Source of the DNA: Ignavibacteriales bacterium
Lineage (GTDB): Bacteria > Bacteroidota > Ignavibacteria > Ignavibacteriales > SURF-24
Assembly (NCBI GenBank): GCA_036261625.1
Contig: DATAKL010000009.1
Location: forward strand, 1,990 to 65,989
DNA: 64,000 nucleotides
Direction: 5' to 3'
In this document: positions 1 to 41,586 of the stretch, in pieces
Layout of the letters: each line of letters begins with the position of its first letter
Numbering within the stretch: position 1 is the first letter of the stretch
Notes under the pieces: model-generated
Seen by the model: only the letters and a program-made list of their open reading frames with translations
Databases searched by the model: none
Told to the model about the DNA's origin: nothing
Made by a program: the position numbers and the translations under genes

Positions 1-132
1 CCCCTTGTAATTTATTCTATTTAGATAAGCGTTTATATCCATACGAATTTTATGCATGTTAAAAAATAAAAATTAAACATGCGGGTTGGATGATGCAATG
101 AAATTATTTATCGGGTTTCTTTTTTATATGCC

Positions 133-252
133 GCCCCTGACCGGGGCTGGGGATGCGTGGGGTGGGGATCATTAACCCGGGGTTTAGTCGTCCGCCTAAG
201 AGTCGGACTCCAGCACCCCGGGCTACAAATGTCTCGCCCGACTCAGTCGGGC
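133..252 (+). repeat. GC-rich modular hairpin repeat, single unit (copy R1)
   Basis: Hairpin GCCCC-tgacc-GGGGC and a G-rich tract GGGGATGCGTGGGGTGGGGAT. Outer stem CCCGGGG (176-182) / CCCCGGG (216-222) encloses hairpin GTCCG..CGGAC. Then CTACAAATGTCT plus hairpin GCCCGAC-tca-GTCGGGC. Same module order as 16811-16926, 25794-25897 and 52308-52425. Confidence 0.75.
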
Positions 253-318
253 TTAGTGATTGCGTAATTCTAAATTCTCAGCTTTCATTAGCTATCTAAT
301 ATCAAGAGACCTAAGTAA

Positions 319-906
319 TTACAGCTTCCAGCCAAAGACTAGGTTTAATTTAATAAGCCAGTTGACTTCGGTATTGTTAGTGGTAATATCTCCTACGTAA
401 CCATCCCAGCTGTAGCCGATTACTTTACCTCCGGCATATTGGAACAGCAGCTCAAATCCCGTGAATTTGAACATATTCACTCCGATTCCGGCTGCAGGCA
501 TGTAGATTCTTGCTCTTGAGTCTCCGCTGTAGATTCCGCCATTGCCCCCGTCATTTACGTGCAGCGCAAGGCCGCCTGTTGCATAAACGTTTTCATTAAA
601 GAAATATTTTGAGAATATGCCGTATTCAAATCCGATGAAGTTATCCCAGAGAAATTCCCGGCCGAATCTGGCTTCAATAGATACTTTTTCCGTTGGATAA
701 ACTGCCAGATTAGTCTGAAATGTTGTAAAGAAAGGAGCCATGAAGAAATCAGCACCGGTGTTCTTTGAAATGCCATGTTCTACTTCTGAATAACTCCGAT
801 GCATCCCCAAAGATTCGAACCTGAATCCAAGCTCTACCGCCTGCGGTTTAATTGTGGTACTAAGCAGAACCAGAAGCAGAACTAAGGTAATCTTATACAT
901 GGTCAT
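319..906 (-). CDS. small outer-membrane beta-barrel protein, function unknown
   Basis: 195-aa ORF with signal peptide MTMYKITLVLLLVLLSTTIKPQA. Alternating aromatic/hydrophobic beta-strand pattern and G/Y/F-rich sequence. Last gene of the minus-strand ABC operon. Confidence 0.55.
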   Translation of the reverse strand: MTMYKITLVLLLVLLSTTIKPQAVELGFRFESLGMHRSYSEVEHGISKNTGADFFMAPFFTTFQTNLAVYPTEKVSIEARFGREFLWDNFIGFEYGIFSKYFFNENVYATGGLALHVNDGGNGGIYSGDSRARIYMPAAGIGVNMFKFTGFELLFQYAGGKVIGYSWDGYVGDITTNNTEVNWLIKLNLVFGWKL

Positions 907-952: not shown

Positions 953-1666
953 TTAATGTTCTTTCAGTCGTGTGTCGCTGTGTATCCTGCCGTCGAGTAT
1001 GTGGATTATCCTTTGCGTGCGCTCTGCAAAAGTCTCATCGTGCGTTACTACTACAATTGTCTGCTTGTGCTTTTCGTTTAACTCTTTAAATAGATCAAAT
1101 ACCATAGCTGAATTCTTTGAATCCAGGTTTCCTGTAGGCTCATCTGTTAGAAGGACAACCGGATCATTTGCAAGCGCGCGTGCTATTGCAACCCTCTGCT
1201 GCTGACCTCCAGAGAGCTGATTGGGTTTGCTATTGAGTTTATCCGAAAGCCCAACGTCGCTTAAAAGCTCCGTGGCTTTTTTTCTTGCCTGTGAAACCGA
1301 ATATTTTCCGCGCGCCACCATCGGCATCATTACATTCTCAAGCGCTGAGAATTCAGGAAGAAGGAAATGAAACTGATAGACAAAGCCCAGCTTTTCATTT
1401 CTTACCTCCGATAATTCATCTTCACTCATGGAAGATATCTCGAGATTATCCAGAAATACTTTTCCCGAGGTCGGCCTGTCCAAGCCTCCCATAAGGTAAA
1501 GCATTGTGGTTTTACCGGATCCCGAGGGGCCAGTAATTGCGGTAAATTCACCCTTTTCAATTTCAAATGACAGATCGGGAAGAATTGTAGTATCCACCTC
1601 AGAGCCATTGGACTTTGAAACGAGTGTTCTTGAAACGTGTTCAAAACGGATTATTACGTCAGACAT
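953..1666 (-). CDS. ABC transporter ATP-binding protein (MacB/LolD type)
   Basis: Walker [13 protein letters not shown] signature [15 protein letters not shown], Walker [13 protein letters not shown]-loop VVVTHD. Confidence 0.93.
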
Positions 1667-1669
1667 TTT

Positions 1670-2938
1670 TTATCTTTCCCCTCTCAGGATTTCTACCGGG
1701 TTTACACGGGCTGCCCCGCGGGCGGGACCTATGGATGCAATAAGGCTTACTACAAATGCAAAAAGGGATGCAAGCACAAAGTACCACGGGCTTTTTCCCA
1801 TCTGAAGACGGTCGCTCCGCATAGATGTATTCGACTCGGACGGGGTAACCTGTATGGAACCCATGATGAAAATAAGCACGTATCCCAACAGGCACCCAAT
1901 GGCTGCGCCTATTAAGGCAACCAATATCCCCTGGAGTAAATAGATTACTGTGATTTCTTTTTTCTTGTATCCGATCGATTTTAATATCGCTATATCCCTG
2001 TATTTCTCCAAAACATTTGTAATAAGCACGTTCGCCACACCGAAGCCTGCAACAAGTATTACAAAGAATACCAGGAAGTAAACCATCATGGAAATCATTT
2101 TGTAAAGCGCTATTACGCTTGACGAGATTTCCTCCCACGTCTTCGACTTGTAGTTTGTCTCTTTTTCTATTGTGCGAGCTGCCTGTGCGTCGCGCTTTAA
2201 GTCCTTTACCCTTAAGTATATCTGGCTTACTTCATCGGGGCGGTAGCCTGCAATGTTCTGCGCTACCCTCAGGTTTACGTAAGCATTATTGTCAATGTCG
2301 TTTATTCCGGTTGAATAAATTCCCACTACTCTCACATCAAAAGTTTTCCCAAGGTTTGACACAAGCTGCAGCTTGTCGCCAAGTCGTAAACCGAAGTCTT
2401 TGGCCGAGGTGGTTCCGAGCATTAGTCCGTCAGGCGTCCTTTCAAGCTCCGTGAACCTTCCCTCAGTCATGTTCTGGCTGAACTTTACAATTTCATCCTG
2501 GGGACCGGGATCGATGCCGAAAACTTCGAGGGGCTGTGAAATTGTGCCGAACTTTGCAATTACCGTAACATTCACCACGGGAGATGTAACGCTAACATTA
2601 GGATCCGACTTAATCAGATTCTCAACCCTCTTGTAATTTTTTATTATCTCCTCATCCTGCCGTTCGACATTCTTGATGAGGTTTATTGTCTCGCCTTTCT
2701 TCGCCTGATAAATCGTATCGCTTACAATGGAAGTCACCTTTTCACCCGATACCACAACGTGCGGCGCAATGTTTACAATCTTATCTATAAAGCTGCTTAA
2801 AAGTCCGTCCATCAAGGATACAGCTGATATAAGCACCATAACGCCCACACCAATGCCTGAAATAGTTAAGATCGTCTGGCGCTTTCTCGAAGTAAGCTGC
2901 CTGAGAGCAATATTCAATATTTGATAATTTATTTTCAA
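1670..2938 (-). CDS. ABC transporter permease, MacB-periplasmic-domain/FtsX family
   Basis: 422 aa. N-terminal TM, large periplasmic domain and C-terminal FtsX-like 3-TM block (FLVFFVILVAGFGVANVL...). Starts 4 nt from the ATPase gene. Confidence 0.85.
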   Translation of the reverse strand: MKINYQILNIALRQLTSRKRQTILTISGIGVGVMVLISAVSLMDGLLSSFIDKIVNIAPHVVVSGEKVTSIVSDTIYQAKKGETINLIKNVERQDEEIIKNYKRVENLIKSDPNVSVTSPVVNVTVIAKFGTISQPLEVFGIDPGPQDEIVKFSQNMTEGRFTELERTPDGLMLGTTSAKDFGLRLGDKLQLVSNLGKTFDVRVVGIYSTGINDIDNNAYVNLRVAQNIAGYRPDEVSQIYLRVKDLKRDAQAARTIEKETNYKSKTWEEISSSVIALYKMISMMVYFLVFFVILVAGFGVANVLITNVLEKYRDIAILKSIGYKKKEITVIYLLQGILVALIGAAIGCLLGYVLIFIMGSIQVTPSESNTSMRSDRLQMGKSPWYFVLASLFAFVVSLIASIGPARGAARVNPVEILRGER

Positions 2939-2978
2939 ATACTTTTTAATTTTTCATTTTTAATTTTTAATTGATTTC

Positions 2979-4265
2979 TCAGGCCCTCAGTATCTCCACC
3001 GGCTTCAGGTTTGCCGCGCGCCTCGATGGAATGTAGCTCGAAAGGGCGCTTACGATAATTGAAAACAGCGCCACAATTATGTACGATGAAAGGGTCTCAA
3101 CCATCGCTATATGATCGCCTCTTACAACTGCGCTTTCGCCGTATGAAATGGGAAGTGAGGCGATAAAGTTTGTAAGGAAGTGCCCTGCAGTCATTCCGAT
3201 TACGGCTCCCGCAATTCCAAATATCATCCCTTCAGAAAGAAAAATGAGCTTTATCTCATTTCTGTCGACTCCCATGGACTTCATTATTGCAATGTCTTTC
3301 TGCTTCTGAAGCACTATTGTTATAAGCACGTTTGCAATACCGAAGCCCGCAACAAGAAAAACAAAGATGACAAGGAAAAGCGTTATGTTGTTATTCCGCT
3401 TAAAAAGCGTAAGCAGATTTAAGTTTGCTTCCTCCCATGTCTCTGCCTTGTAGCCTGTAAGGCTTTCTACACGGCGGGCAACGTCGTTTACAGCGTCAAG
3501 AGAAGTTGTATGCATTCCGATACCGGAGACCACATTGTCGCTGAAGCCGTTTATCGTCTGCGCAAGCTTAAGATTAACGTATGCGAAATTGTCATCCGTT
3601 GCGCTGAAGCCGCTTGTAAAAATTCCAACTATCCTTAGACGATAAATCTCGCTGTTTTCTCCGGCCAACTGGATCTGATCGTGGTACTTTGCCTTAAGCT
3701 TCTTTGCCATGCCGGAACCAAGAATGATACCGTTTTTTGTATAATTAAGCTCGTTTAAGCTGCCGATTTTCACATTCTTTTCAAGACTTGCAATCCCTCG
3801 CTCCCTTTCAGGTATAATTCCTTTTATAATTGCCGTCCTGTAGAGCGTTCTTTCCCTTAAGACGCCGCGGGTTTCAACAAAAGGGGAGACAGCATCAATT
3901 TCAGGGATTGCATCCATGACTGAAATTACTTCGCGGTAAGATTTTACTTCTTTTTTCTCATCGGGGATTATACGGCTTGCAATGTAAAACTCGTCACTTT
4001 GTCCGGGTGAGGATTTTAAGAGGAGGTGTTCTTTACCTTCAAGTTTCTCGCCTTTAACTGTTACAAGAGGGGAGATCTCAATTATCTTGCTTTGAATGTC
4101 ACTGATTATCCCCTGAGTAAGCGCAAACGTTATGATCATTACCATTGCGCCTGTTGCAACGCCGGTTACAACCAGTATGGTCTGCTTTTTCTTTGCCTCA
4201 AGGTGCCTTAAGGCAATTGAGAGAATAAAGCGCAGCTTCGGGATAACTGTAAGTTTTGAAGCCAT
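2979..4265 (-). CDS. ABC transporter permease, MacB-periplasmic-domain/FtsX family (paralog)
   Basis: 428 aa with the same architecture as 1670-2938 (FLVIFVFLVAGFGIANVLITIV). Abuts the adaptor gene. Confidence 0.85.
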   Translation of the reverse strand: MASKLTVIPKLRFILSIALRHLEAKKKQTILVVTGVATGAMVMIITFALTQGIISDIQSKIIEISPLVTVKGEKLEGKEHLLLKSSPGQSDEFYIASRIIPDEKKEVKSYREVISVMDAIPEIDAVSPFVETRGVLRERTLYRTAIIKGIIPERERGIASLEKNVKIGSLNELNYTKNGIILGSGMAKKLKAKYHDQIQLAGENSEIYRLRIVGIFTSGFSATDDNFAYVNLKLAQTINGFSDNVVSGIGMHTTSLDAVNDVARRVESLTGYKAETWEEANLNLLTLFKRNNNITLFLVIFVFLVAGFGIANVLITIVLQKQKDIAIMKSMGVDRNEIKLIFLSEGMIFGIAGAVIGMTAGHFLTNFIASLPISYGESAVVRGDHIAMVETLSSYIIVALFSIIVSALSSYIPSRRAANLKPVEILRA

Positions 4266-4266
4266 T

Positions 4267-5322
4267 TTAGTTTACGTCGACCTTCATATTATCGGTGTAG
4301 CTTCCTTTGGGCTCATCCACAATCTTCGCCCCTTCCGAAAGGCCGGTTCCCGAGACATCGGCAAACTTCCCGTCTAAAGTCCCACCGTTAAGCTGGACTT
4401 TCTTCAGGCGCTCACCTTCAACCTTAAAGACGTAGCGGTTCCGGTTTTCCTCAAGCACAGCCGTCCGGGGAAGAAGAAGAGCGTTTTCCTTTTCACCAGC
4501 TTTAATATTAATTGTAGCTGTCATGCCGAGATTAAGCTTTTCAGGCGAAGTTTTAAGCTTAATATAAACCCTGGATGTTTTTGTAGCCTCATCTGTTCTG
4601 GGCACAATCCTCTGTAGAACTCCTTCAAATCTCTCATCCGGATAGGCGTCGAAGGCTACTACTGCAGGCATACCCTTGTTTATCTTGCCAAGATCCTGCT
4701 CATCAACTTCCCCCTGAACGAGTATTGAATTAGGAGCCAAGATTTCAAAACATTCGGCGTTCGGAGTAAGATTGTCGCCAAGGTTTACCTTTACGTTAAC
4801 AAGCACGCCTGAAAATGGCGCTATAACTTCTGTTTTTGTGAGGTTCTGCCTTGCAATATCGAGCGCCACCTTTTTCTGATCGAGGCTTACTTTTGCCAGT
4901 TCATAGCTTTGTCTTGCATCTTCAAGCTCTTTTTTTGTGATGCTGTTTGATTTGTACAGGCTTTCTTTTCTTCCAAGATCCCGTTCTTTGGCCGAGAGGT
5001 CAATCTCTGCCGTCTTGATCTGGCTTTCGGCATCCCTAAGCCTCAGCTCCTGATCACTTCTGTCTGTACGGAGCAGAACGGTTCCTTTTTTTACTGTCAT
5101 CCCCTCTTTTCCGATTATATACTTTACTATTCCGCCCGACTCCGAGCGCAGCGCGGCAACAGAATCGGCCGTTACAGTTCCAGTAGCATAAATTAAGGTT
5201 ACAAGATTGCCCTTTGTAACCTCTACGGTCTTTACCTTTTCATGATTAAAAAAAGCTTTGTAAATGCCATAAATTACAGCGATAAGCACGAGGGAAACTA
5301 TGATGATATACTTTCTTTTCAT
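4267..5322 (-). CDS. HlyD/MacA-type periplasmic adaptor (membrane fusion) protein
   Basis: 351 aa. N-terminal TM anchor, coiled-coil segment (SDQELRLRDAESQIKTAEIDL...) and barrel-sandwich/beta-barrel C-terminal pattern. First gene of the 5-gene minus-strand operon. Confidence 0.85.
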   Translation of the reverse strand: MKRKYIIIVSLVLIAVIYGIYKAFFNHEKVKTVEVTKGNLVTLIYATGTVTADSVAALRSESGGIVKYIIGKEGMTVKKGTVLLRTDRSDQELRLRDAESQIKTAEIDLSAKERDLGRKESLYKSNSITKKELEDARQSYELAKVSLDQKKVALDIARQNLTKTEVIAPFSGVLVNVKVNLGDNLTPNAECFEILAPNSILVQGEVDEQDLGKINKGMPAVVAFDAYPDERFEGVLQRIVPRTDEATKTSRVYIKLKTSPEKLNLGMTATINIKAGEKENALLLPRTAVLEENRNRYVFKVEGERLKKVQLNGGTLDGKFADVSGTGLSEGAKIVDEPKGSYTDNMKVDVN

Positions 5323-5560
5323 TTATTTACCTGAATTAGTATTCCTGAAGGAAAAGCCGGCCGAAGAAGTAACCGCTTTTGATGAAGTTTAATTTAATGA
5401 ATGGGCTCTTTATATTCAAATCCCGTTAAAACTCCTTCTTTTGACTTATAATTTAAGGAGATTTTTTTATAAAAAATGTTCTGTGACTTTTTCTTTCAAA
5501 GTGCTTACCTTTGGGAAAACTGCTTTCATTTTTATTCAATATCATCGGGAAATAATTTTC

Positions 5561-7057
5561 ATGAAAAAACTTATTCTTTTTCTCTTAGCCTTTTCTTTTA
5601 CGGGGCTTTTTGCACAGGAGACCGTTCCCCCCAAAAGGGAATTCAGGGGCGCCTGGGTGGCAACGGTAGCCAATATCGACTGGCCCACAAATAAAAATGC
5701 CACCTCAGGAGAACAGATTGCAGAACTGGTTTCCATAATGGACAGGCTGAAGGCCTCGGGCGTTAATGCTGTTATATTCCAGATAAGAACCGAGTGCGAC
5801 GCCCTCTATCAGTCCAAAATTGAACCCTGGTCGTACTGGCTGACCGGAAAGCAGGGCAAAGCACCCGAGCCATTTTTTGACCCCCTGCAGTTTGCAATCA
5901 GTGAAGCCCACGCCAGAGGCATGGAGCTCCACGCCTGGTTTAACCCCTACAGGGCAGTTAAGGGGATAGGCGAATACGAAGCTGCCCCCAATCACGTCTC
6001 GGTTCTTCATCCCGACTGGCTTCTGACCTTTAAGGATTACAAGATGCTGGATCCGGGTCTTCCTGAAGTGAAAAATTATGTTCTCTCCATTGTCTCCGAC
6101 GTCCTCAGGCGCTATGACGTAGACGGAATTCACTTTGACGACTACTTCTACCCCTACGGACCCAAGGTCTCAAACGAGGACTCACTGACCTATGCAAAGT
6201 ATCACGGCAGCTTTACAAACGTCGACGACTGGAGAAGAAACAACATAAACAGCCTTATGGCAAGCATTTATGATACCATTAAGGTTATTAAGCCCAGGGT
6301 AAAGTTCGGTATAAGCCCGTTCGGAATTGTTGAAAATAAGTACGCCGGCACAGATGGTTTCCAGTCCTACAATATTCTTTACTGCGACCCGTTGACATGG
6401 ATTAAAAATAAGAGTCTGGACTACATGAACCCTCAGCTTTACTGGGAAATAGGCCACGCAAGGGCGGATTACGGAAAGCTTCTTCCCTGGTGGGCTTCTG
6501 TAACCAAGGATATGCACCTTTACATCGGACAGTTCTCCAGTCAGATGGCAGCTCCTAAATACAAGGGTAAGAAAACTGAGCTTGAAGACCAGATGAGGTT
6601 AAACCGCACAACTCCGAACGTCCAGGGAGAGGTATTCTTCAGCTCTAAGAGCCTGACAGATAACTATTCGGGTTTTGCTGACACCTTGAAGAATAATTTC
6701 TATAAGTATCCGGCACTTCCTCCCTTAATGCCATGGAAAGAGACCACGCCCCCTCTATCACCGGAAAACCTTACCGTTAAGGGGGATTCTACGGGAGCAA
6801 CCTTAGAGTGGACCGCCCCCAAAGCTGCCAGCGACGGAGAGACTGCAAGCTACTACGCCGTCTACCGCTTTACGGATAAGGATGAGATAAACACTGAAGA
6901 CCCGAGATTTCTCCTTGGTGTAATCTCTTCCAGGAAAACAAAGTATAAGGACCCCGTTAAGCTTTCTGAGGGCGCAAAGTACATATATATAGTTACAGCA
7001 CTCGACCGCCTGTTTAATGAAAGCGAAAAAAGCTCCACAACCCTGAGCCTTAAGTAA
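5561..7057 (+). CDS. glycoside-hydrolase-like GHL10 (YddW/COG1649-type) secreted protein with C-terminal Fn3-like domain
   Basis: Preferred start is ATG 5561 (MKKLILFLLAFSFTGLFAQ signal peptide), not the upstream ORF-track start. REFRGAWVATVANIDWP and GIHFDDYFYP motifs are typical of this family. Confidence 0.8.
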   Translation: MKKLILFLLAFSFTGLFAQETVPPKREFRGAWVATVANIDWPTNKNATSGEQIAELVSIMDRLKASGVNAVIFQIRTECDALYQSKIEPWSYWLTGKQGKAPEPFFDPLQFAISEAHARGMELHAWFNPYRAVKGIGEYEAAPNHVSVLHPDWLLTFKDYKMLDPGLPEVKNYVLSIVSDVLRRYDVDGIHFDDYFYPYGPKVSNEDSLTYAKYHGSFTNVDDWRRNNINSLMASIYDTIKVIKPRVKFGISPFGIVENKYAGTDGFQSYNILYCDPLTWIKNKSLDYMNPQLYWEIGHARADYGKLLPWWASVTKDMHLYIGQFSSQMAAPKYKGKKTELEDQMRLNRTTPNVQGEVFFSSKSLTDNYSGFADTLKNNFYKYPALPPLMPWKETTPPLSPENLTVKGDSTGATLEWTAPKAASDGETASYYAVYRFTDKDEINTEDPRFLLGVISSRKTKYKDPVKLSEGAKYIYIVTALDRLFNESEKSSTTLSLK

Positions 7058-7064
7058 TTCTTTT

Positions 7065-7102
7065 TTAAGAGGCGGAGCACGCAAAAAAGCTCCGCCTCTT
7101 AA
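7065..7102 (+). terminator. stem-loop just after the GHL10 gene
   Basis: TTAAGAGGCGGAGC-acgcaaaaaa-GCTCCGCCTCTTAA, a 14-bp perfect stem 8 nt after the stop. No downstream T-run. Confidence 0.5.
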
Positions 7103-7120
7103 GACTATCCGAAATTTCAT

Positions 7121-7688
7121 ACCAAACCGCTTTCAGCGGTTTCATATTTGTAGAAAAACGGACCCCAAAACAATTCAGCCCGCCAGAGGCGGTCTATATG
7201 CCTTTATTTACCTGAAAATATGAAACCACTGACGTGGTTTGGAAGAGGTTTTTGTTCCATATTGCTACAAATAGGTAGCCGCTAAAGCGGATAGAAAGGA
7301 ATGTCTCTATACTGTAGGGAATCCTCCTAACTGCGTTAGCAGTTACCTATTTGTAGGGACCGTGTAAAAAACCTCCCCGAACAGCGTAGCTGTTCCATCA
7401 GACTACAAATAGGTAGCCGCTAAAGCGGATAGAAAAGGAAAAACTTTGTTCTGAATACAAAGGGATTTTTCTAACTGCGTTAGCAGTTACCTATTTGTAG
7501 AAACAGGGACCCCAAAATCCATTCTGAACCACGTAGTGGTTCCATAGGCCAATTCATGCAAAATCTTCAACATGAAATTGTTTTTTTATTCCGTTCCTAC
7601 AAATAGGTAGCCGCTAAAGCGGTTAGGAAGGAATGTCTCTATATTGAAGGGAAATTTCCTAACTGCGTCAGCAGTTACCTATTTGTAG
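7121..7688. repeat. tandem array of nested palindromic multi-hairpin units
   Basis: Three 92-98 bp units at 7265-7356, 7403-7500 and 7597-7688. Each is CTACAAATAGGTA + hairpin CCGC-taaa-GCGG ... hairpin CTGC-gtta-GCAG + TTACCTATTTGTAG. They are separated by linker units GGACC..AAAA..-hairpin-TTCCATAGG, and a solo right arm lies at 7121-7153. Confidence 0.85.
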
Positions 7689-7808
7689 GAGTCAAACCGC
7701 CCTTAAATTTCTTTTCCGATTTACGAATTACTGACTGTTAATTTTGCCTAAAAGCTCTTATGTTTGTATCCATTACCAATCAAAAAACATATAAGAAAGC
7801 AGTCATAA

Positions 7809-16572: not shown

Positions 16573-16668
16573 GAAATTTAGTGCCACAAAAGAAAAACCG
16601 CTTCAGGCCTTATGTGCCAACTCAATTAAAAGGCCGATGAAAGGTAAGCATCTTAAATGGAAGTTATT

Positions 16669-16926
16669 AAGCCCCGATGAGGGGCGATTTGTCTATAGCC
16701 CGGAGTGACCAAACCCGCCTTTGGCGGGTGCGGGAACTCCCGGGTAACGAATTCCCCAAATTCCCCAGAGCCCCGAGAGGGGCGATTTGTTCGGCCCGTA
16801 TTTATACAAGTCGCCCCTCTCGGGGCTCTTTTGGGGTGGGGGGATCCGTTTCCCAGGGGTTCAGTCGCCCCCATCCGGGGGCTTCCTCACCCCGGACTAT
16901 AGACAAATCGCCCCTCATCGGGGCTT
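16669..16926. repeat. 258-bp nested palindrome made of two inverted modular hairpin units (copy R2)
   Basis: 35-bp terminal inverted repeats, 16669-16703 vs 16892-16926, 34/35 complementary. Inner inverted pair GAGCCCCGAGAGGGGCGA (16768-16785) / TCGCCCCTCTCGGGGCTC (16811-16828). The right half has the same module order as R1, R3 and R4. Confidence 0.9.
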
Positions 16927-17120
16927 GTTAAATGCGTTAATCTGCATACTCTCCTTTCATTATTATTTTTGAATTAAATTAACGCCTCAGGCCTCATGAG
17001 GATTTCTTTCTTTTGTATTTTACTTATTCCTATAATTATTTAGATTTGCCATATTAGTCTAAAGAACTTTTTTTTTGGCTCCTTTTTTGGGAGTGAACTA
17101 AAATATAAAAGGAAAACATC

Positions 17121-18251
17121 GTGAGCACATTAGAAACTGCCCCGGCAGAAGAAATCCAGGAAAAAAGAATTGAAGTTCCTGTTAAGAAAGCCCGCATAGC
17201 TTCAATTGACGCTTTCCGCGGCTTTACGGTTCTTTCTATGATCTTTGTAATTCAGGTTGCCGGCTATACCAACCTGCCCTTTACACAATCCTGGTTCGGC
17301 AGCGCGCCGGTCTCACAGTTCCATCACGCAGGAGATGCCGTTGGAAGTACTAATGGCGTGGGACTGACATTTACAGATCTGGTTGCTCCTTTCTTTGTTT
17401 TTATTGTGGGCATGGTTCTTCCTTTAAGCCGGAAAAAACGCGGAGGCGAGTTCTGGAAACACGTGGGAACCAGGACTCTCCTTTTAATTGGCCTGGGCAT
17501 CTTATACATTTCCTTAATTCTTAATCTTTCCTATTGGTGGGGTATTCTTCAGGCCATTGGAATTGCCTATTTTATGGGGGCTTCACTGATGCTCGTTAAG
17601 CCTTCCTGGCGCTGGGCAGCGGTTGTTTTAATTGCAGGGTTCCACCAGGTAATGTCTATTGTTTTCCCCTGGTGGCTCAGCCTTGGCGACCCTACAAAAC
17701 CGTTTCTTACAATCACAAACCTTGCAGGCGATCCCCTGCGCCCTCTTACCGTGCACTGCACGCCATGGGCTTCAATCTCCTACGGCGTAATTACTGTAAT
17801 CGGCACATTCTTAGGTGAAGCCGTACTGACACGCGATCCGAAAAAAATTATCAGACAGTCGGTTATAATGGGCATTGTTCTCTGCACGGCAGGATACCTT
17901 CTGCATCTCTATCACTGGCCCTTGTTTGCAATGAACAAGCCAAACGTGTCAGCTTCATATGCAATATTTACTTCCGGCGTTGCATCTCTGACTTTTCTTA
18001 TTTTCTATCTCATAATGGATGTCTGGAAAGTTCAGAAATGGGCTTGGGCCTTTATGGTCTTCGGCTCAAATGCCCTTTTGGGTTACTTCCTGCAGCCGAT
18101 CGTAAGAATATTTCTTTTCGCCTTGGGCTTCAAGCCCTTCTTTTCGGGCCACAGCGGCTGGGATGGAATGCTCTTTGGACTCATATGGACGGCAATTATA
18201 TGGGTAGTGCTACTCTGGTGCAATAAACGGAATATATACTGGAAGATTTAA
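17121..18251 (+). CDS. polytopic membrane protein, DUF5009/heparan-alpha-glucosaminide N-acetyltransferase-like acyltransferase
   Basis: 376 aa, GTG start. RIASIDAFRGFTVLSMIFV motif and ~10 predicted TM helices. Confidence 0.6.
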   Translation: MSTLETAPAEEIQEKRIEVPVKKARIASIDAFRGFTVLSMIFVIQVAGYTNLPFTQSWFGSAPVSQFHHAGDAVGSTNGVGLTFTDLVAPFFVFIVGMVLPLSRKKRGGEFWKHVGTRTLLLIGLGILYISLILNLSYWWGILQAIGIAYFMGASLMLVKPSWRWAAVVLIAGFHQVMSIVFPWWLSLGDPTKPFLTITNLAGDPLRPLTVHCTPWASISYGVITVIGTFLGEAVLTRDPKKIIRQSVIMGIVLCTAGYLLHLYHWPLFAMNKPNVSASYAIFTSGVASLTFLIFYLIMDVWKVQKWAWAFMVFGSNALLGYFLQPIVRIFLFALGFKPFFSGHSGWDGMLFGLIWTAIIWVVLLWCNKRNIYWKI

Positions 18252-25460: not shown

Positions 25461-25580
25461 TTAAAAATATAGATAATTACTCCTCAAGTTGCCAGGTGCA
25501 AAAGCCGGGGTATTATTTTCTTTGCCCGGATCAAATTTTAAGTATCAGCCTAACAATTTATAAATCGGATGTCTTCAGAT

Positions 25581-25897
25581 GCCGCGGTCAGCGGCATAGT
25601 GTCGATAGCCCCGGGTGACGGAATTCGCCTTTGGCGAATGACCGAACCCGGGGTTATGGATAAAAAAATTTTCGGAGCCGCGGTCAGCCGCGACATGTTC
25701 CGATTGCACAACGGATACGTTTTAATGAAATTAAATTGTCGCTTATTTTTGTTGGGAATTTCCATAACGGGTTCCCCCCCATACGAAAAATGGCGCGGCT
25801 GACCGCTGCGCTTGGGGATTGTGGGGGGATTCCGTGATCCCGGGGTTCAGTCGCCCCTCTGGGGCTTCTTCACCCTGGGCTATCGACACCAAGCCGC
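25581..25897. repeat. 317-bp composite palindromic hairpin element (copy R3)
   Basis: Terminal inverted repeats GCCGCGGTCAGCGGCATAGTGTCGATAGCCCC (25581-) vs GGGCTATCGACACCAAGCCGCTGACCGCGGC (-25897). The right arm 25794-25897 is a full unit. The left arm is an inverted, diverged unit. Confidence 0.85.
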
Positions 25898-25951
25898 TGA
25901 CCGCGGCTTTAAGACAATATAAATATTAAATTGATACCTAAATCCTGAAAT

Positions 25952-35748: not shown

Positions 35749-36086
35749 CTTTCTCTCCCAATTTTATAAATAATATATCGATACTTCGGCCATAATTCAA
35801 TAAAGCAGCCGGGTTGAACTATAATTTAATATATCTTTAATTTAGCAAGTATGTAAGGAACAGATATTAAAAGGAAACAGATTATACGATTTTCCAGCTT
35901 TTTTATGGATTTTTATTCTTTTTTTATGTGCGTTTCCTAAAAACAAACGCAACTTTTCAGAGGAAGCTGCAATGCCGGCATTTGCCGGCAGATTTAAGGC
36001 ACAAAGTGACAATATCTTTAATGTTAAGATATTCCAGATAAGGGAACTCAATTCTGCCTAATCTCCAAAAATATTTTTACTTTGCA

Positions 36087-36113
36087 GCAACATTTTTCTT
36101 TTGCCGGCGTCTA
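36087..36113 (+). promoter_or_regulatory. putative ECF-type promoter (AAC-N16-CGTCTA)
   Basis: GCAAC (36087-36091), a 16-nt spacer, then CGTCTA (36108-36113), ~50 nt upstream of the sigma gene. A parallel arrangement occurs at 39434-39460. Confidence 0.35.
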
Positions 36114-36163
36114 TAATATAAACAATCGGAAAGGACTTGACCAATACTCAACCTGAAGGCAGA

Positions 36164-36652
36164 ATGGAATTTAAGTTTTATTATGCAAAACATAAGTCCA
36201 AATTGTACTTTTATGTATTCAGAATGCTGAATGATAAGATGCTTACCGATGACATTGTGCAGAATGTGTTTATTAAACTTTATGAGAATATGGATAATAT
36301 TAATAACCGGGAATTTATAGCATCATGGATCTATAAAACTGCAAGAAATAAGGTTTATAGCTTTTTAAGGCATAAAAAAAGAAAAGCCGAGGAGCTGATT
36401 GACGACGAAGAGCCGCTATACTCTGAAACGCTGACGGATGAAATGGATAATGTTGAGTTGAGGGAAATGATTATGTCGGCACTTGAAACTATCCCTGAAG
36501 AGCAAAGGGAAGCTTACCTGCTGAAAGAATATTCAGGCTTCAGCTATAAAGAGATAGCATCTCTTCAGGACATTGATGAAGAATTGGTCAAAAGCCGCCT
36601 TTTCCACGCAAGAAAGAAACTGATAGCTAAAATAGCCAAGGTCATTTTATAA
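36164..36652 (+). CDS. ECF (group 4) sigma-70 factor
   Basis: Region 2 (DDIVQNVFIKLYEN..WIYKTARNKVYSFLR) and region 4 (AYLLKEYSGFSYKEIASL..VKSRLFHARKKL). ATG 36164 preferred to TTG 36137. Confidence 0.85.
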   Translation: MEFKFYYAKHKSKLYFYVFRMLNDKMLTDDIVQNVFIKLYENMDNINNREFIASWIYKTARNKVYSFLRHKKRKAEELIDDEEPLYSETLTDEMDNVELREMIMSALETIPEEQREAYLLKEYSGFSYKEIASLQDIDEELVKSRLFHARKKLIAKIAKVIL

Positions 36653-36668
36653 TAAAAGGAATGATCAT

Positions 36669-37136
36669 ATGAAATGCGAAGAAATTCAAGAATTGATAAG
36701 CCAATTTAGTGACGGCTCTCTGGAAACAGAAAAAGAGGCCTTCATATTTGCACATATGTCGGTGTGCCCCGGGTGCAGGACATTCTTAAAATCTATTAAC
36801 ACGCTTAGCTTTTCAGCTCAGAGAGAAGAATTCTATTTCCCTCCTGAACTGGACAAGAAGGTCATCAGCAAAACCGAAAAGAGGAAAGCGAAAAAGCACG
36901 TAAACATTCTTACCATGAAATATCCGGCATATGTTTCCTTTTCATTCGGAGCAGTTGTGATATTATTGCTCTTCCTGCTTTTTAAGTCAACAACAGAATA
37001 CAGGCAGGAGCTTCATGAAGCCATGGAAAACATGCAGCAGCAGAATAAGCAGATTCAGACTATACTGAACAGCTACCCTGAAATTCAGGTTCGGCCTAAA
37101 CAGGTAAATGAAATATTCGTTAACAGAAAATTGTGA
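36669..37136 (+). CDS. anti-sigma factor (zf-HC2 type, single TM)
   Basis: N-terminal H..C..C motif (HMSVCPGCRTFL) and a TM helix YVSFSFGAVVILLLFLLF. Follows the sigma gene. Confidence 0.65.
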   Translation: MKCEEIQELISQFSDGSLETEKEAFIFAHMSVCPGCRTFLKSINTLSFSAQREEFYFPPELDKKVISKTEKRKAKKHVNILTMKYPAYVSFSFGAVVILLLFLLFKSTTEYRQELHEAMENMQQQNKQIQTILNSYPEIQVRPKQVNEIFVNRKL

Positions 37137-37145
37137 GGCAGTGAA

Positions 37146-38114
37146 ATGAAATCCAGATACAGATATTTTATTGCAATCAGCATCATTGTGCTGGTATTTA
37201 TTATCGGATTGGCTGCGGGTTTCTTTATAAATAAGCGCCCTAATTTTATATCCTCCTCAATTAAACAGCATGAAGTTTACAACACTTCTGATTGGGCAAT
37301 ATCATATTACTCCATTTCGGTGCCTCAGGATTATTATGATACAAGGTTCGTAAACAAATCAGCTCAGATCAATATGGGAGACAAGAAGTTCCTTGATATA
37401 ATAGGTAAATCCATACCCGTTAAAACAGTTTTTGACAACTGCGGAGAAGGCACGCACCAATTCAATTTTATTTTCCAGATTGATAAGAATGGAAATGCGA
37501 TCGATTGCAATATCCGCAAGATCATTAATACAACCAAAGGCGGGGGTGTTAGAAATGCAGATTACTTAATTCAGGGCAAAGCACTAATTAATAATCTTGC
37601 CGCAAAATATCAGCCCGGAGTTTACAGTGGGAAAATTGTTAACAGCCTTATGATAAAAGATCTGGCGATCTATGTGGATAAGAACGGAAACTCCAGGGCA
37701 GGGTGGAACTTTTCTGAAACTTTGCCCGGAATATCCATGGCACCATACAACTATGCACTAAAAAGCCCGCGTGGCCCCCGTCAAAGAAGAGAACTTGAAG
37801 AATACAAATCTTCAGCTGATAAAATGCCCGAGTATCCCGGTGGGACACAGGCCATGGCAAAGTTTATCGAAAGGAACATCATTTACCCGGAAGCGGCAAA
37901 ACAGGCAGGCGTTGAAGGGAAAGTTATTGTGGAAGTATATATTGATGAAATCGGCAGGGTCGCTTACGCAAAAATATTAAAAGGCATTGGCGGCGGATGC
38001 GAAGCAGAAGCCGAGAGAGTATTGGGTCTCTTGAAAAACTTTCGGCCAGGAATTGAAAATGGGGTGCCGGTAAAAACCAAAATAGTTATTCCTTTCAACT
38101 TCAACATTGGATAA
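37146..38114 (+). CDS. membrane-anchored protein with C-terminal TonB_C domain
   Basis: N-terminal TM. C-terminus MPEYPGGTQAMAKFIERNIIYPEAAKQAGVEGKVIVEVYIDEIGRV is the TonB C-terminal fold pattern. No Pro-rich TonB linker seen. Confidence 0.75.
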   Translation: MKSRYRYFIAISIIVLVFIIGLAAGFFINKRPNFISSSIKQHEVYNTSDWAISYYSISVPQDYYDTRFVNKSAQINMGDKKFLDIIGKSIPVKTVFDNCGEGTHQFNFIFQIDKNGNAIDCNIRKIINTTKGGGVRNADYLIQGKALINNLAAKYQPGVYSGKIVNSLMIKDLAIYVDKNGNSRAGWNFSETLPGISMAPYNYALKSPRGPRQRRELEEYKSSADKMPEYPGGTQAMAKFIERNIIYPEAAKQAGVEGKVIVEVYIDEIGRVAYAKILKGIGGGCEAEAERVLGLLKNFRPGIENGVPVKTKIVIPFNFNIG

Positions 38115-38308
38115 ATTCAAGTTTCCCTAATTTCCTTTGCAGGAAACATGAAGCATCAGGAAACAGTTGGAGTAAGTGGCAGTCCTTTAGAGTTGCAATT
38201 ACAGTTGGACAATGAAAACTTATAATTTTATATTGCAAACTATTATACAGAAATCTATTTGAAATCTACTTAATCAGCTTTTACTTTTCGTTTTAGCAAG
38301 GAATTTGA

Positions 38309-39202
38309 ATGATGAAATTCGGTGGAAGAGTATCTGTTTTCTTTCTGAGTATTTTTGTTTTTGCATCCAATATTTTTGGAGAAAGCGACTCATTAAAAAC
38401 TAATTATTCAAAATCCCCAGCTATCGATATTACGTCTATCAGGGACGATTTTGATAAAACTCTTATTAATGAAGGCTATAAGAACTATTCTGTATTTATC
38501 TTGCCCTCGGGCACTTATTGCAAATCCATTTATCTTGCAATAAATCCCTCCTTAGAAGTTTTGGATATAAAAGTGATCGCAATCTTCAGTGAGGGCTTTG
38601 ATATGAGTCAGGAGCCCTTAAAAGCAATGAATGATTCTTTATATATAGGGAAAGTAGGATTAAGCAGCAGGAATGGTTTCCCTGTTGAACCTATCAGCAT
38701 CGTATTTGACCGAAAGAATAACAGCATATTTTATAAATGCAGCAATCCATCCGGGAAGAATGAGCCATACTACTTTAAGAGGGAGAACATAGGAAGTTAT
38801 TTTCCCTTCAAAAGAATGAATACCTGTGACGGCAAAGATATTGAGATTACAAGAGACAAAATATTCATATTCAACTGGTGGGAAACGGGCTGTGTACCAT
38901 GCAGGGTAGAAATTCCCGGTTTGAATAAACTGGTGGAGAAATATAAAGGCAATGACAGCGTTGTTTTTATTTCAGTGATTCACGACAATAACAATTTAAA
39001 GAAGTTCCTGTCCGGGAATAGATTCGACTACATTCACTGCTTTTCAGATAAAGATATTACAGATTACTTTGGCATTAGATATCCAAGAAATATCATCGTA
39101 AACCATGAAGGTAAAGTGATTTATGATGAAGTTGGGGCAATAGCCAATAAATACATTGAACTTGAAAAAGTAATCGACCAGGCTATCAGCATTAAGAAGT
39201 AG
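38309..39202 (+). CDS. secreted protein with C-terminal TlpA-like thioredoxin-fold domain
   Basis: Signal peptide. WWETGCVPCRVEIPGLNKL (CxxC) within a ~130-aa thioredoxin-like C-terminal domain. The N-terminal ~165 aa are unassigned. Confidence 0.65.
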   Translation: MMKFGGRVSVFFLSIFVFASNIFGESDSLKTNYSKSPAIDITSIRDDFDKTLINEGYKNYSVFILPSGTYCKSIYLAINPSLEVLDIKVIAIFSEGFDMSQEPLKAMNDSLYIGKVGLSSRNGFPVEPISIVFDRKNNSIFYKCSNPSGKNEPYYFKRENIGSYFPFKRMNTCDGKDIEITRDKIFIFNWWETGCVPCRVEIPGLNKLVEKYKGNDSVVFISVIHDNNNLKKFLSGNRFDYIHCFSDKDITDYFGIRYPRNIIVNHEGKVIYDEVGAIANKYIELEKVIDQAISIKK

Positions 39203-39433
39203 AAATAAAAACTGTAACTGGTATAAAATGCACATTCAATTCGCAGCGAATTCAATTATCTTGTTCCCTGAGGCAGGAGCCAAAGTAACTTAAATAATTG
39301 TAAATCTTTGCGAACAGGCCTTCTCTATAGAACATATACCTGTAGATAATATCTGGAGTGGGTCACAGTTCAGCTTCTTTTTGCCCAATCTCCAACACTA
39401 TTTTGTCTCGCAGAAAAATCTTTTATGCTTCGT

Positions 39434-39460
39434 GTAATTTTTTCATCTTTCATTCGTCTA
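39434..39460 (+). promoter_or_regulatory. putative ECF-type promoter (AAT-N16-CGTCTA)
   Basis: GTAAT (39434-39438), a 16-nt spacer, then CGTCTA (39455-39460). The upstream block 39382-39425 resembles 36055-36100. Confidence 0.3.
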
Positions 39461-39485
39461 TTTATTAACAACAAATAATTACTCT

Positions 39486-39974
39486 TTGAATAATACTTTA
39501 GTTCATATCCCATCAGAAAAATTATATAAAATGTATTCTGATGATATTTTAAGATATTCTTTTAGCATCCTAAGAGATTATGAGGAAGCTAAGGATATGG
39601 TGCAGGAAGTATTTATCCGGCATTTTGAAAACGAACAGTCATTTAAGGGAGCCTGCAGTTATAAAACGTGGCTCCTGATCATTACCCGGAATCTCTTTTA
39701 CTCTAAAATCAAAAGCAAAAGCTTTACAAATGAAAGAGTTGACGAAGAACTTAATGATTCTGTTTTTGAAGTAAACTATGAAATTAATATTTCTATAAAA
39801 GATGCGTTAATGAAAATCCCCTCTGAATATAGTGAATTGTTATATCTGAAAGAAGCAGAGGGCTATTCGTATGAGGAAATATCTCAAATTACAGAAACCT
39901 CACTGGATAACGTGGCCGTCAGATTACACAGAGCAAAGAAGATGCTAAGGAAAATATTAAAAGACCGGTATTAA
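39486..39974 (+). CDS. ECF (group 4) sigma-70 factor (second copy, distant paralog)
   Basis: Region 2 (KDMVQEVFIRHFEN..WLLIITRNLFYSKI) and region 4 (LLYLKEAEGYSYEEISQI..VAVRLHRAKKML). TTG start; the start site is uncertain. Confidence 0.8.
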   Translation: MNNTLVHIPSEKLYKMYSDDILRYSFSILRDYEEAKDMVQEVFIRHFENEQSFKGACSYKTWLLIITRNLFYSKIKSKSFTNERVDEELNDSVFEVNYEINISIKDALMKIPSEYSELLYLKEAEGYSYEEISQITETSLDNVAVRLHRAKKMLRKILKDRY

Positions 39975-39975
39975 T

Positions 39976-40704
39976 ATGAAACATTATGATTATGAAATAA
40001 GCCTTTTTGTTGAAGATGAACTGCCGGATGAGCAGATCACTTTACTGAATATGCATTTAGCCGGCTGTAAAAGCTGCAGACAGGTTTTATCGGATTATAT
40101 GGAAATAAAAAATGAAGTTTCAAAATTCTATAAAAACCTGCCTTCGGATATTCAGGAACTGAATCAAAGTGGTTTAAGCACCAATTTTAATAGAAGTATA
40201 ATAAAAGGGATCCATAAAAACAGCCTTAATACTGAAATCAAATCTTTTAGAAGGAAGAAATTCTTTATACCAGTTTCTGCGGCTGCTTCTTTCATTATTG
40301 CCGTGTTAGCTTTCTGGAATCTTTGGCATCATGATATTCAAGATACATTTAAGAGCGGCAGCACTCCTGCTTTTCAAAAAGACATAGAACAGACAACTTC
40401 CAACAAGAATACTTATTCCCCTCATCTATATGCGGCTGAAGACCAGACGACGAGGGAAAGTACCAGGGCACTAAAAGATCAGGTTGAAAGTATAAAAAGG
40501 CTGAAGACTGATTCTCTAGATAATAATTATGTCCTGACTGTTGAATGCTTTAATGAGGAAATTGATAAGGCTATAGCGGCTCACAAAGATAGACTTAAAA
40601 ATACAGGCTATTTGGTCTCCTTTTCCAGGTATTCTGAATTTGAGGATTTCAATGCAGTTATTGACAGTGCCTTATTAAAACAAAACTTACAAATCTTAAA
40701 CTAA
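39976..40704 (+). CDS. anti-sigma factor (zf-HC2 type, single TM)
   Basis: HLAGCKSCRQVL motif and TM FFIPVSAAASFIIAVLAFW. The start lies 1 nt after the sigma gene stop. Confidence 0.65.
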   Translation: MKHYDYEISLFVEDELPDEQITLLNMHLAGCKSCRQVLSDYMEIKNEVSKFYKNLPSDIQELNQSGLSTNFNRSIIKGIHKNSLNTEIKSFRRKKFFIPVSAAASFIIAVLAFWNLWHHDIQDTFKSGSTPAFQKDIEQTTSNKNTYSPHLYAAEDQTTRESTRALKDQVESIKRLKTDSLDNNYVLTVECFNEEIDKAIAAHKDRLKNTGYLVSFSRYSEFEDFNAVIDSALLKQNLQILN

Positions 40705-40722
40705 TTTCAAGGGTAACTTAAA

Positions 40723-41337
40723 ATGAAACCTGATAAGAGAACTGCTGCAGGAATATTTTTTGTGATGTTGTCCATATCATTTTTTGGTTTTGAATTAAAC
40801 CCGGACGGCAGTATTCCTAAGGGGTGGATAAAAGCGGGAACCGATAGTAAAAGTTATGAAGTGGGCATAGAAAAAGGCGCGGGAAACGACGGCAGCAATG
40901 CCGCTTATATAAAATCCATCAAGGCCGACATAAAGGGATTTGGAGTTTTACTTCAGGGCTTCTCTGCGGAAAAGTATCTCGGGAAAAGAGTAAGATTAAG
41001 CGGATATATGAAATCAAAGGATGTTGAAAATAGCGCGGGTTTTGTAATGAGAATCGAAAATGAGGAAGATAGGAGTCATCCATTGGGATTTGATAATATG
41101 AGTAACCGTCCTGTTAAAGGAAATACGGACTGGAAAATTTATCAGGTTGTACTTGATGTTCCTGAAAACAGTACCGAAATTATGCTGGGCGGACTCCTTA
41201 CAGGTAAAGGACAGGTATGGTTCAGCAATTTGAAATTCGAAGTGGTGGATAAGTCTGTACCGACTACGGATTTGGGTTCTATAATAAATGATAAAGGAGA
41301 ACCGGTGGAACCGACAAATCTCAATTTTCAGGATTAG
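40723..41337 (+). CDS. secreted beta-sandwich (CBM/jelly-roll-like) protein, function unknown
   Basis: Signal/TM anchor, then the pattern IPKGW..G....Y..G, GKRVRLSGYMKSKDVE and GNTDWKIYQVVLDVPENS. Third gene of the second ECF module. Confidence 0.55.
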   Translation: MKPDKRTAAGIFFVMLSISFFGFELNPDGSIPKGWIKAGTDSKSYEVGIEKGAGNDGSNAAYIKSIKADIKGFGVLLQGFSAEKYLGKRVRLSGYMKSKDVENSAGFVMRIENEEDRSHPLGFDNMSNRPVKGNTDWKIYQVVLDVPENSTEIMLGGLLTGKGQVWFSNLKFEVVDKSVPTTDLGSIINDKGEPVEPTNLNFQD

Positions 41338-41450
41338 TGATCACTGCTCGTCCCGATTAAAAGTCCCGGGGTGTACAACATGAAATCAGCTCATATCAGG
41401 CTTGCACCCCTAAACTTTAGAATTTATCACAAATTTGTACGCTTTAAAGC

Positions 41451-41502: not shown

Positions 41503-41503
41503 A

Positions 41504-41530: not shown

Positions 41531-41586
41531 CTTTTTAAATGTGAGATATATCAAGACGTTCTGGATCTGAAGCATTATATTCCGGT

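Follow-up and report, generated by a model that had tools for sequence, protein, structure and literature searches.

Structure of the nested palindrome

The 64,000-nt stretch of an Ignavibacteriales contig analysed here (the window) carries an intergenic nested palindrome, designated U2, which belongs to a dispersed family of structured units resembling repetitive extragenic palindromic (REP) sequences and their composites, the bacterial interspersed mosaic elements (BIMEs) and inverted REP doublets (REPINs). A preliminary description of the window had presented U2 as a 258-bp nested palindrome, and the symmetry proved to be real; its ends (16669-16703 and 16892-16926) were reverse-complementary at 34 of 35 positions when read from the sequence, and an inner pair (16768-16785 and 16811-16828) was complementary at 18 of 18. 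Repeat search recovered the arms as 16664-16727/16868-16931 (64 nt, 81%) and 16734-16790/16806-16862 (57 nt, 77%), while further outer arms at 16637-16651/16946-16960 extended the symmetry to 16637-16960, or approximately 324 bp. Two inverted units were present as described, but each measured about 135 nt rather than 115 bp, within an element longer than 258 bp. The outer extension, TTAGTAAnTGCGTTATTCTnnnTGCTCAGCTTTCA, was found again at other copies. When 16637-16960 was folded as single-stranded DNA (ssDNA), the free energy was -112 kcal/mol (z = -15.7 against dinucleotide shuffles). The component parts of U2 are listed below; bit scores refer to a covariance model (CM) that was built from 18 units and searched against the window and related loci.

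16637..16960, no strand: full U2 doublet (REPIN/BIME-like), comprising an inverted left unit, a 29-nt centre, a right unit and outer extensions of ~35 nt ending ...CTTTCAT
16664..16799, minus strand: left unit, with the left-type P2/B subtype (TTCCCGC...TTTGGTCAC); CM 116.7 bits, E 4e-28
16797..16931, plus strand: right unit, with the right-type P2/B subtype (TTCAGTC...TTCCTCAC); CM 130.4 bits, E 1e-31
16813..16826, plus strand: right-unit REP hairpin A (GCCCC-TCTC-GGGGC), following ACAAGTC; mirror copy at 16770-16783
16833..16843, plus strand: G-rich spacer of the right unit (GGGGTGGGGGG); mirror C-rich tract at 16745-16767
16852..16896, plus strand: long imperfect palindrome P2/B of the right unit; mirror copy at 16699-16744 (inner hairpin 16713-16729)
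16897..16924, plus strand: canonical REP module of the right unit, from a strict motif scan, with CTAT tag (16897-16900), 9 nt (AGACAAATC) and hairpin C (16910-16924, GCCCC-TCATC-GGGGC); mirror at 16671-16698

In the P2/B palindrome of the right unit, a 7x7 internal loop (TTCAGTC/TTCCTCA) separated the outer stem (CCCAGGGG/CCCCGGA) from the inner hairpin B (16867-16882), and the palindrome adjoined the CTAT tag directly.

The surroundings of U2 had features of their own. A 16-nt direct repeat (14/16) at 16599-16614 and 16983-16998 bracketed the element, as did a second pair at 16586-16595 and 17007-17016; an A-tract lay on the left side and a hairpin with a T-tract on the right, giving the impression that U2 had inserted into a bidirectional terminator and split or partly duplicated it. 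A Logan short-read contig (L036) containing the window gene at 17121-18251 stopped 268 nt upstream of that gene, at the edge of the repeat.

Copies in the window and the grammar of the units

The CM scan recovered six long units in the window (99-130 bits, E 1e-23 to 1e-31), together with short relatives at 7119-7691 and copies in related loci. All six long units aligned with the same module order, as had been claimed, and the copies named in the preliminary description all existed; the cluster of short units at 7119-7691 had been missed. In addition to the two units of U2, the following copies were delimited:

117..259, plus strand: single long unit U1; CM 98.7 bits
7119..7691, no strand: array of REP doublets and short units without P2/B (CTACAAATAGGTA + GCCGCTAAAGCGG and similar sequences), BIME-like with alternating orientations, forming direct and inverted repeat families; CM 9-30 bits
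25574..25914, no strand: second doublet, U3, with GCCGC-type hairpins; inverted unit at 25574-25707 (minus), centre of ~70 nt, unit at 25779-25914 (plus); CM 108.7 and 123.5 bits
52295..52432, plus strand: single long unit U4, between convergent genes; CM 118.8 bits

The U1 element probably extends to about position 288, and conservation in its alignment with the copy at a related locus (L026) ran up to ...CAGCYTTCAT. In total, the window contained six long and approximately eight short units per 64 kb, with a G-C content of 0.57-0.62 compared with ~0.44-0.47 in their surroundings, which bears out the GC-richness noted previously. The intergenic region 7058-7700 was filled by short REP units and inverted doublets without P2/B, for example CTACAAATAGGTAGCCGCTAAAGCGG; a separate, perfect 14-bp hairpin was located at 7065-7102, directly after the stop codon of the gene at 5441-7057.

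The anatomy of the units was read from a side-by-side layout of 68 copies, which were all the CM hits in 273 kb and came from the window together with 29 related loci. The elementary module was REP-like: a CTAY tag, approximately 9 nt (consensus AnACAAGTC), and a GC-rich hairpin of 5-7 bp with a loop of 3-5 nt. Hairpins A and C were both modules of this kind, in direct orientation, so that a long unit consisted of REP(A), a G-rich spacer, an optional P2/B palindrome abutting CTAY, and REP(C). Hence, the unit that had been treated as elementary was itself a composite of two REPs, a spacer and an optional long palindrome. P2/B, comprising the P2 stem, a 7x7 internal loop and inner hairpin B, was confined to long units, while the G-rich spacer was present in nearly all long and short units. 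CTAY, which is RTAG on the other strand, was nearly invariant (Y was T in approximately half of the copies); it adjoined the P2 stem and stood ~9 nt from the short hairpins. Because P2/B abuts CTAY, the opposite strand reads RTAG followed by a palindrome, which is the classical REP layout. The module of tag, nine nucleotides and hairpin (~28 nt) occurred at seven sites inside the elements of the window, and the strict motif gave 11 hits in all where 1.9 were expected.

Variation on this plan was considerable. Short units without P2/B made up the array at 7.1-7.7 kb, occurred at locus L028 and accounted for many copies in the genome bin-C14; in L029, L008 and L012 P2/B was no more than a plain hairpin, and in L022 it was perfectly paired. 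Two P2/B subtypes were distinguished, TTCAGTC..TTCYTCAC and TTCCCGC..TTTGGTCAC. The types of hairpin A and C within a unit were paired non-randomly, which is weak evidence given that the copies share descent. The G-rich spacers at 144-182 and 16833-16859 contained at least four G-runs of 3-4 nt or longer (in U1, GGGG-ATGCGT-GGGG-T-GGGG...GGGG), from which G-quadruplexes could in principle form on the top strand. By eye, the G-rich tract did not fit the 'GGGGWSAS' motif of the terminal inverted repeats (TIRs) described by Di Nocera et al.

Covariation and folding

The preliminary description had held that stems co-vary between copies under selection for structure; the covariation was confirmed, and it supports such selection. 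Its listed variants of hairpins B and C were all present as written. In a structure-blind MAFFT alignment of 18 units, both partners had changed in 12 of 22 predicted pairs. Among the 68 copies, 97.7% of cells were in standard pairs and double changes affected 18 of 22 pairs; 127 cells were doubly changed, compared with 25 +/- 4 in shuffled data, and none of 500 shuffles reached the observed number. The alignment of 68 copies was fitted to the CM and is thereby biased toward structure, and the MAFFT alignment serves as the independent check. When partners were slid by 1-3 columns as a control, pairing fell to 29-61%. Double changes occurred in every pair of helix 1 (hairpin A, 4/4) and helix 5 (hairpin C, 5/5). 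One-sided changes of the G-U type numbered 2, 0 and 0 in hairpins A, B and C respectively, against 21, 38 and 57 double changes; the near absence of G-U fits a DNA palindrome and would be unusual for an RNA helix.

Single units were no more stable than shuffled sequences, either as RNA (z +0.3 to -3, either strand) or as DNA (z -0.9). The structure of the units is therefore supported by covariation, not by folding energy.

Units of the family around a Y1 gene in related genomes

A pattern scan using one genome per species found the repeat core in three metagenome-assembled genomes (MAGs). One of these, Ignavibacteria bin-C14, included a locus (L026) with 78% identity and conserved synteny to window positions 999-5337. 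Similarity or synteny to parts of the window was also found in the other two, whose records are titled Acidobacteriota MAG223 and Syntrophomonadaceae MAG164. The MAG223 and MAG164 records are L001-L004, L008, L009, L012, L013, L015-L018, L028 and L029, and their Y1 protein was 84% identical to an Ignavibacteriales protein; the two titles probably reflect mislabelled or mixed bins.

The preliminary description had proposed a search for a cognate transposase, such as a REP-associated tyrosine transposase (RAYT). Genes of the HUH-Y1 type, encoding 162-167 amino acids, were indeed flanked by units at L009, L028 and L029. At L009, the open reading frame 5432-5935 encoded a 167-aa protein with HVH and YIQNQEEHH motifs, which matched Pfam Y1_Tnp (E 1e-26) and the NCBIfam model for IS200/IS605 transposases (transpos_IS200) at 82 bits, with a cut-off of 55. 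An approximate IS608 TnpA query had given the weak match that led to L009; the identification itself rests on the Pfam and NCBIfam models. The closest solved structure was ISDra2 TnpA (E 2e-12), and matches in the PDB were to IS200-type TnpAs only. A tblastn search with an approximate query for the E. coli RAYT, YafM, gave no match in the window or the related loci. By its model scores and PDB matches, the Y1 enzyme associated with the units is not a canonical (class-2) RAYT.

The arrangement of units around these genes was inverted. The L009 gene was situated between a unit on the minus strand (5138-5297, 80 bits) and one on the plus strand (6106-6241, 140 bits). Its paralogue in the same genome (L028, 68% identical) was preceded by five short units, all on the minus strand, and followed by further units, of which the first was on the plus strand; a homologue at L029 (57% identical) had two plus-strand units downstream and the remnant of half a REP upstream. 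The hairpin type varied with the gene copy, being GCCCC in L009, GCTCC in L028 and GCCGC in L029, and the two diverged Y1 paralogues in MAG223, 68% identical to each other, differed in hairpin type. The L029 gene (P0008) was found at one and the same locus in four independent assemblies.

The doublets could be related to these gene-flanking pairs in detail. The left unit of U2 was of the subtype found to the left of the L009 gene, and its right unit was of the subtype found to the right; the doublets at L018 and L003 likewise combined an inverted left-type unit (TTCCCGC..TTTGGTCAC) with a right-type unit (TTCAGTC..TTCYTCAC). Since they share these units with the pair that flanks the gene, the doublets look like internally deleted, gene-less derivatives. 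The centres of three GCGGC-type doublets retained a 36-nt segment that is found upstream of the L029 Y1 gene, with up to 32 of 36 positions identical.

Two sets of tandem motifs at L009 were observed beside the gene. Three copies of a ~22-nt motif (GATATCTGAATTCATGTAAA) lay between the left unit and the Y1 gene (5290-5350), and three copies of GCATTTGGGTTTTTGATT just downstream of it (6040-6095); these could be regulatory or binding sites. An origin of the omega-RNA type, linked to TnpB or IscB, was considered and dropped, as no tnpB or iscB was seen beside the Y1 genes of L009, L028, L029 and L033-L035, the places screened for them.

Flanking hairpins across the Y1 clade

Homologues of the Y1 protein at approximately 50% identity were common in Bacteroidota. 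Two of them, L034 (Sphingobacterium hungaricum) and L035 (an ENA contig), were flanked by inverted modules of the type CTACAAAyATTTA + GCACC-TAC-GGTGC. A metagenome scan provided 80 further loci, and usable flanks were available for 78 loci in all (73 from the scan, plus L009, L028, L029, L034 and L035). A significant inverted repeat (z >= 5) surrounded the Y1 gene at 46 of these 78. The recurrent design was a hairpin, nine nucleotides and (G/A)TAG upstream of the gene, mirrored by CTA(C/T), nine nucleotides and a hairpin downstream, and this design was general across the Y1 clade. Strict CTAY-N7-11-hairpin sites were orientated accordingly at the 73 metagenome loci: upstream, 80 were on the minus strand and 26 on the plus strand, while downstream 51 were on the plus strand and 29 on the minus strand. 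At least one correctly orientated upstream site was present at 52 of the 73. The stems varied by locus and pairing was always retained. In the protein alignment, the HUH histidines and the tyrosine of the Y motif were invariant, and PDHVH/PDHIH, WQxGYG, YIxNQEEHH and the C-terminus were conserved.

Genomic placement of the units

All 34 long units were intergenic, in both orientations relative to genes. The preliminary description had placed every copy just downstream of a gene 3' end; this applied to all four sites in the window, but some copies in the relatives occupied divergent intergenic regions. Single units were at least as common as doublets. Consistent flanking direct repeats were absent from U1, U3, U4, L003 and L018, leaving the 16-nt repeat around U2 as the only instance; such a lack of consistent target duplications is expected of HUH-Y1 chemistry, and not of DDE transposons.

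At least 13 long copies were present in those parts of bin-C14 that were examined, and near-identical copies occupied many sites, which represents recent amplification. At bin-C14 loci L006, L010, L011, L014 and L020-L027, the long unit was contained within composite blocks of several hundred nucleotides that recurred nearly identically; these blocks also included further REP modules and the microsatellites (CTTGAAC)n and (AACTTAA)n, and intergenic lengths there ran to over 1.4 kb. A copy of the long unit was found beside the same syntenic block in the window (1-420) and in L026 (4560-5130), in genomes that are ~78% identical. Strict orthology of these two copies was considered and dropped; their positions are similar, but an extra gene in the window (319-906) lies between the element and the syntenic block. 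The L026 copy was closer to the other copies in its own genome than to U1, which suggests within-genome homogenisation or re-insertion.

Relationship to known systems

The preliminary description had been unable to match the repeat to any known family; this has been superseded, since the units belong to a known kind of system. Of the possibilities it had raised, a REP/BIME-type element was the one borne out, by the REP-like hairpin clusters and by a cognate HUH-Y1 gene flanked by the same units in relatives.

Like the REPs, BIMEs and REPtrons of Proteobacteria, these are short, GC-rich, extragenic palindromes with a tetranucleotide tag; the nearly invariant CTAY, or RTAG when read from the opposite strand, adjoins the long P2 palindrome in the way that GTAG adjoins a REP, and is ~9 nt away from the short hairpins. 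They also occur as singletons, inverted dimers and alternating clusters (7119-7691 in the window, and the L028 arrays) with stem variants that remain complementary, and their HUH-Y1 gene lies between inverted repeats, several repeat types with their own enzyme copies coexisting in a genome. They differ from these systems in the gap between tag and short hairpin, in having stems of just 5-7 bp and composite units of three hairpins (90-165 nt), in an enzyme that is not a class-2 RAYT and in an Ignavibacteria-like host. To our knowledge, research on systems of the REP/REPIN type has been confined almost entirely to Proteobacteria and class-2 RAYTs. No paper linking Ignavibacteria to REPs was found in the literature searched, and the survey by Di Nocera et al. 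(2013; PMC3733652) reported no GTAG REPs from Bacteroidetes or Chlorobi.

In REPINs (Bertels and Rainey 2011; PMC3116915), as in U2, U3, L003 and L018, two inverted REPs or units form one long hairpin; both kinds of element are non-coding, both would be moved in trans by a Y1 enzyme, apparently one present in a single copy, and here too a copy occupied a similar position in a related genome. However, the arms described here are composite units of ~135 nt instead of REPs of ~20 nt, single units are common, and the two arms belong to different subtypes, the left one corresponding to the left flank of the enzyme gene and the right one to its right flank. Besides GTAG-tagged REPs and REPtrons, Di Nocera et al. 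described 'TIRtrons', in which a Y1 gene lies between long inverted repeats that are self-complementary in part and belong to dispersed families. The present units resemble these TIRtrons/TIRYTs, and the Pseudomonas TIRs that combine a REP with an unrelated stem-loop (PMC3733652), in placing a Y1 gene between long inverted repeats with self-complementary tracts, and in forming moderately abundant families dispersed as singles, dimers and clusters; the likeness drawn here concerns the layout of the repeats, and the long repeats here are built from tagged REP modules, unlike those of TIRtrons.

The protein carries the signature of TnpAY1 subclass 1.2 of Quentin et al. (2018; PMC6006769), which is defined by DH[IV]H, WQ and Y---Q--HH. 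It shares these motifs (the last as YIxNQEEHH), a length of ~150-167 aa and a conserved C-terminal extension, as well as an apparently low copy number and presence in Bacteroidetes; the assignment was made from this signature. The same authors recorded 'no' for structures associated with this subclass and described it as IS200-like, low-copy and without the properties of an insertion sequence (IS), whereas most members examined here were flanked by inverted tagged hairpins. A further comparison is with IS200/IS605 elements such as IS608 and ISDra2 and the palindrome-associated transposable elements (PATEs) derived from them. By sequence, the closest relatives of the enzyme are the HUH-Y1 transposases of IS200/IS605 elements; the absence of target duplications, the proposed recognition of subterminal ssDNA hairpins and a tetranucleotide at some distance 5' of the hairpin are further likenesses. 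The left ends of IS608 and ISDra2 carry such a tetranucleotide at a distance 5' of the hairpin. On the other hand, the ends here are inverted copies instead of left and right ends on the same strand, no tnpB was seen beside the Y1 genes inspected, the repeats form arrays, and the gene is apparently confined to a single locus.

Interpretation and alternative explanations

Taken together, it is probable, although well short of certain, that the units are non-coding repeats of the REP/BIME/REPIN type acting as ssDNA hairpins recognised by a cognate, IS200-like HUH-Y1 enzyme, and that the palindrome in the window is a gene-less, non-autonomous derivative. Two inverted units and a Y1 gene would constitute a 'REPtron' in the relatives, and U2 would be the same pair minus the gene. 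Where ssDNA is exposed by replication or repair, the enzyme would bind the hairpins and, through its HUH motif and catalytic tyrosine, would cut and rejoin at or near CTAY; units could thereby multiply, change orientation, form clusters and spread through intergenic DNA, leaving no target-site duplications. The stems would co-vary because the enzyme reads the shape of the hairpin, each hairpin type co-evolving with its own enzyme copy, and effects on transcripts, such as protection of 3' ends or weak termination, might be side functions. Cleavage at CTAY, mobility of the units and the identity of the active strand are predictions made by analogy with IS608, ISDra2 and the E. coli TnpA_REP.

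Several observations weigh against this interpretation. No Y1 gene was detected by homology search in the 64-kb window or beside any of its copies, and the link between enzyme and repeat comes from repeat homology in related genomes and not from the source genome. The L009 protein scored 34.5 bits against the NCBIfam model REP_Tyr_transpos, below its cut-off of 80, and E. coli TnpA_REP was not among its PDB matches. A gap of ~9 nt separates the tag from the short hairpin, whereas the two adjoin in REPs, and 32 of the 78 homologous loci lacked a significant flanking inverted repeat. Finally, P2 accepted a G-T wobble on the top strand in ~15 of 49 copies, indicating a strand-specific fold that RNA could also explain.

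An unlikely alternative is that each single unit is a miniature IS200/IS605 element, or PATE, with A as its left end and C as its right end, moved by peel-and-paste in trans by an IS200-like TnpA that is not part of a domesticated REP/RAYT-type system. The enzyme does pass the IS200/IS605 equivalog model and has ISDra2 TnpA as its closest solved relative; hairpins A and C share one orientation, their stems and loops are related and their types are non-randomly paired; the tag stands 5' of the hairpin, as in an IS200/IS605 left end; and target duplications are absent. Yet the gene is flanked by inverted units instead of asymmetric ends on the same strand, tandem arrays of many REPs (L028, and 7.1-7.7 kb in the window) are not IS-like, the gene remained at one fixed locus in four assemblies, and the protein subclass has been described as low-copy and without IS properties (PMC6006769).

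The units might instead be sites maintained by the host, for gyrase, the integration host factor (IHF), a nucleoid protein or a domain boundary, or their pairing might be a by-product of intrastrand template switching in quasi-palindromes. Such an origin would be in keeping with the retention of a copy at comparable positions in two genomes whose neighbouring genes are only 78% identical, and with the strictly Watson-Crick, G-T-free pairing of hairpins A, B and C; E. coli BIMEs are known to bind host proteins (PMC2817692). As a full account it is improbable, leaving unexplained why the Y1 gene is flanked by inverted repeats across a whole protein clade and why hairpin type tracks the enzyme copy; as a secondary role, it is compatible with the enzyme-linked REP interpretation.

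Structured RNA had also been among the earlier suggestions, the units being 3' untranslated region stabilisers, terminators, small RNAs or other RNA genes or cis-elements, with the Y1 association incidental. Compensatory changes in all helices, the G-U pairs accepted by P2 on one strand only, the position of every window copy beside a gene 3' end, and the reverse strand of each REP, which reads as a hairpin followed by GATTTGT and appeared terminator-like in a simple scan, all point in this direction. An Rfam search, which had been recommended as a check, nevertheless gave no match at the gathering threshold over the whole window; the best sub-threshold hits were generic, miRNA-like hairpin models at no more than 27 bits, compared with 93. 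A ribozyme or tRNA-like core was dropped for the same reason. Moreover, units faced either way relative to the neighbouring genes and were also present in divergent intergenic regions, G-U was essentially missing from hairpins A, B and C, both strands folded about equally with single units not exceeding shuffles, perfectly inverted doublets and alternating arrays would be unexpected of an RNA gene, and the same hairpins systematically flanked the gene of a DNA-cleaving enzyme. An RNA function as the primary explanation is accordingly a rather poor prospect.

A miniature inverted-repeat transposable element (MITE) with structured ends was the remaining earlier suggestion. The idea of a conventional MITE, a deletion derivative of an IS with a DDE transposase, is barely credible: a length of 258-324 bp, long inverted termini, multiple intergenic copies and the one 16-nt direct repeat (14/16) around U2 are as it would predict, but no consistent target-site duplications were found (U1, U3, U4, L003 and L018 having none), half-elements were at least as common as doublets, the termini were internally hairpinned modules in tandem, and the sole associated gene was that of the Y1 HUH enzyme, with no homologue at the other loci examined, although those loci were not screened for DDE transposases.

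Implications for the Y1 subclass

The flanking inverted tagged hairpins at most homologous loci suggest that the listing of subclass 1.2 as repeat-free should be revised. With somewhat less assurance than for the units themselves, we lean towards the view that the orphan HUH-Y1 proteins of subclass 1.2, in Bacteroidota, Ignavibacteriota and others, are the enzymes of a distinct and widespread REPtron system in which a 9-nt linker joins a CTAY tag to a 5-bp GC hairpin, the module having been elaborated in Ignavibacteria-like genomes into composite three-hairpin units (120-165 nt) and gene-less palindromic doublets. If so, subclass 1.2 would gain a function and would represent a second lineage of 'domesticated' enzymes for REP processing, of independent origin and sister to the true IS200 transposases. 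The conspicuous GC-rich intergenic repeats of these genomes would be accounted for, and the CTAY-N9-hairpin module would offer a simple, testable biochemical substrate. No new principle is involved, this being a further case of hairpin repeats tied to an HUH-Y1 enzyme. In practical terms, the elements appear to break short-read assemblies.

Base composition of the window

Apart from the repeats, the region 36000-51000 of the window had a G-C content of 0.32-0.40, compared with 0.44-0.49 elsewhere, and may represent a horizontally acquired or specialised gene cluster.

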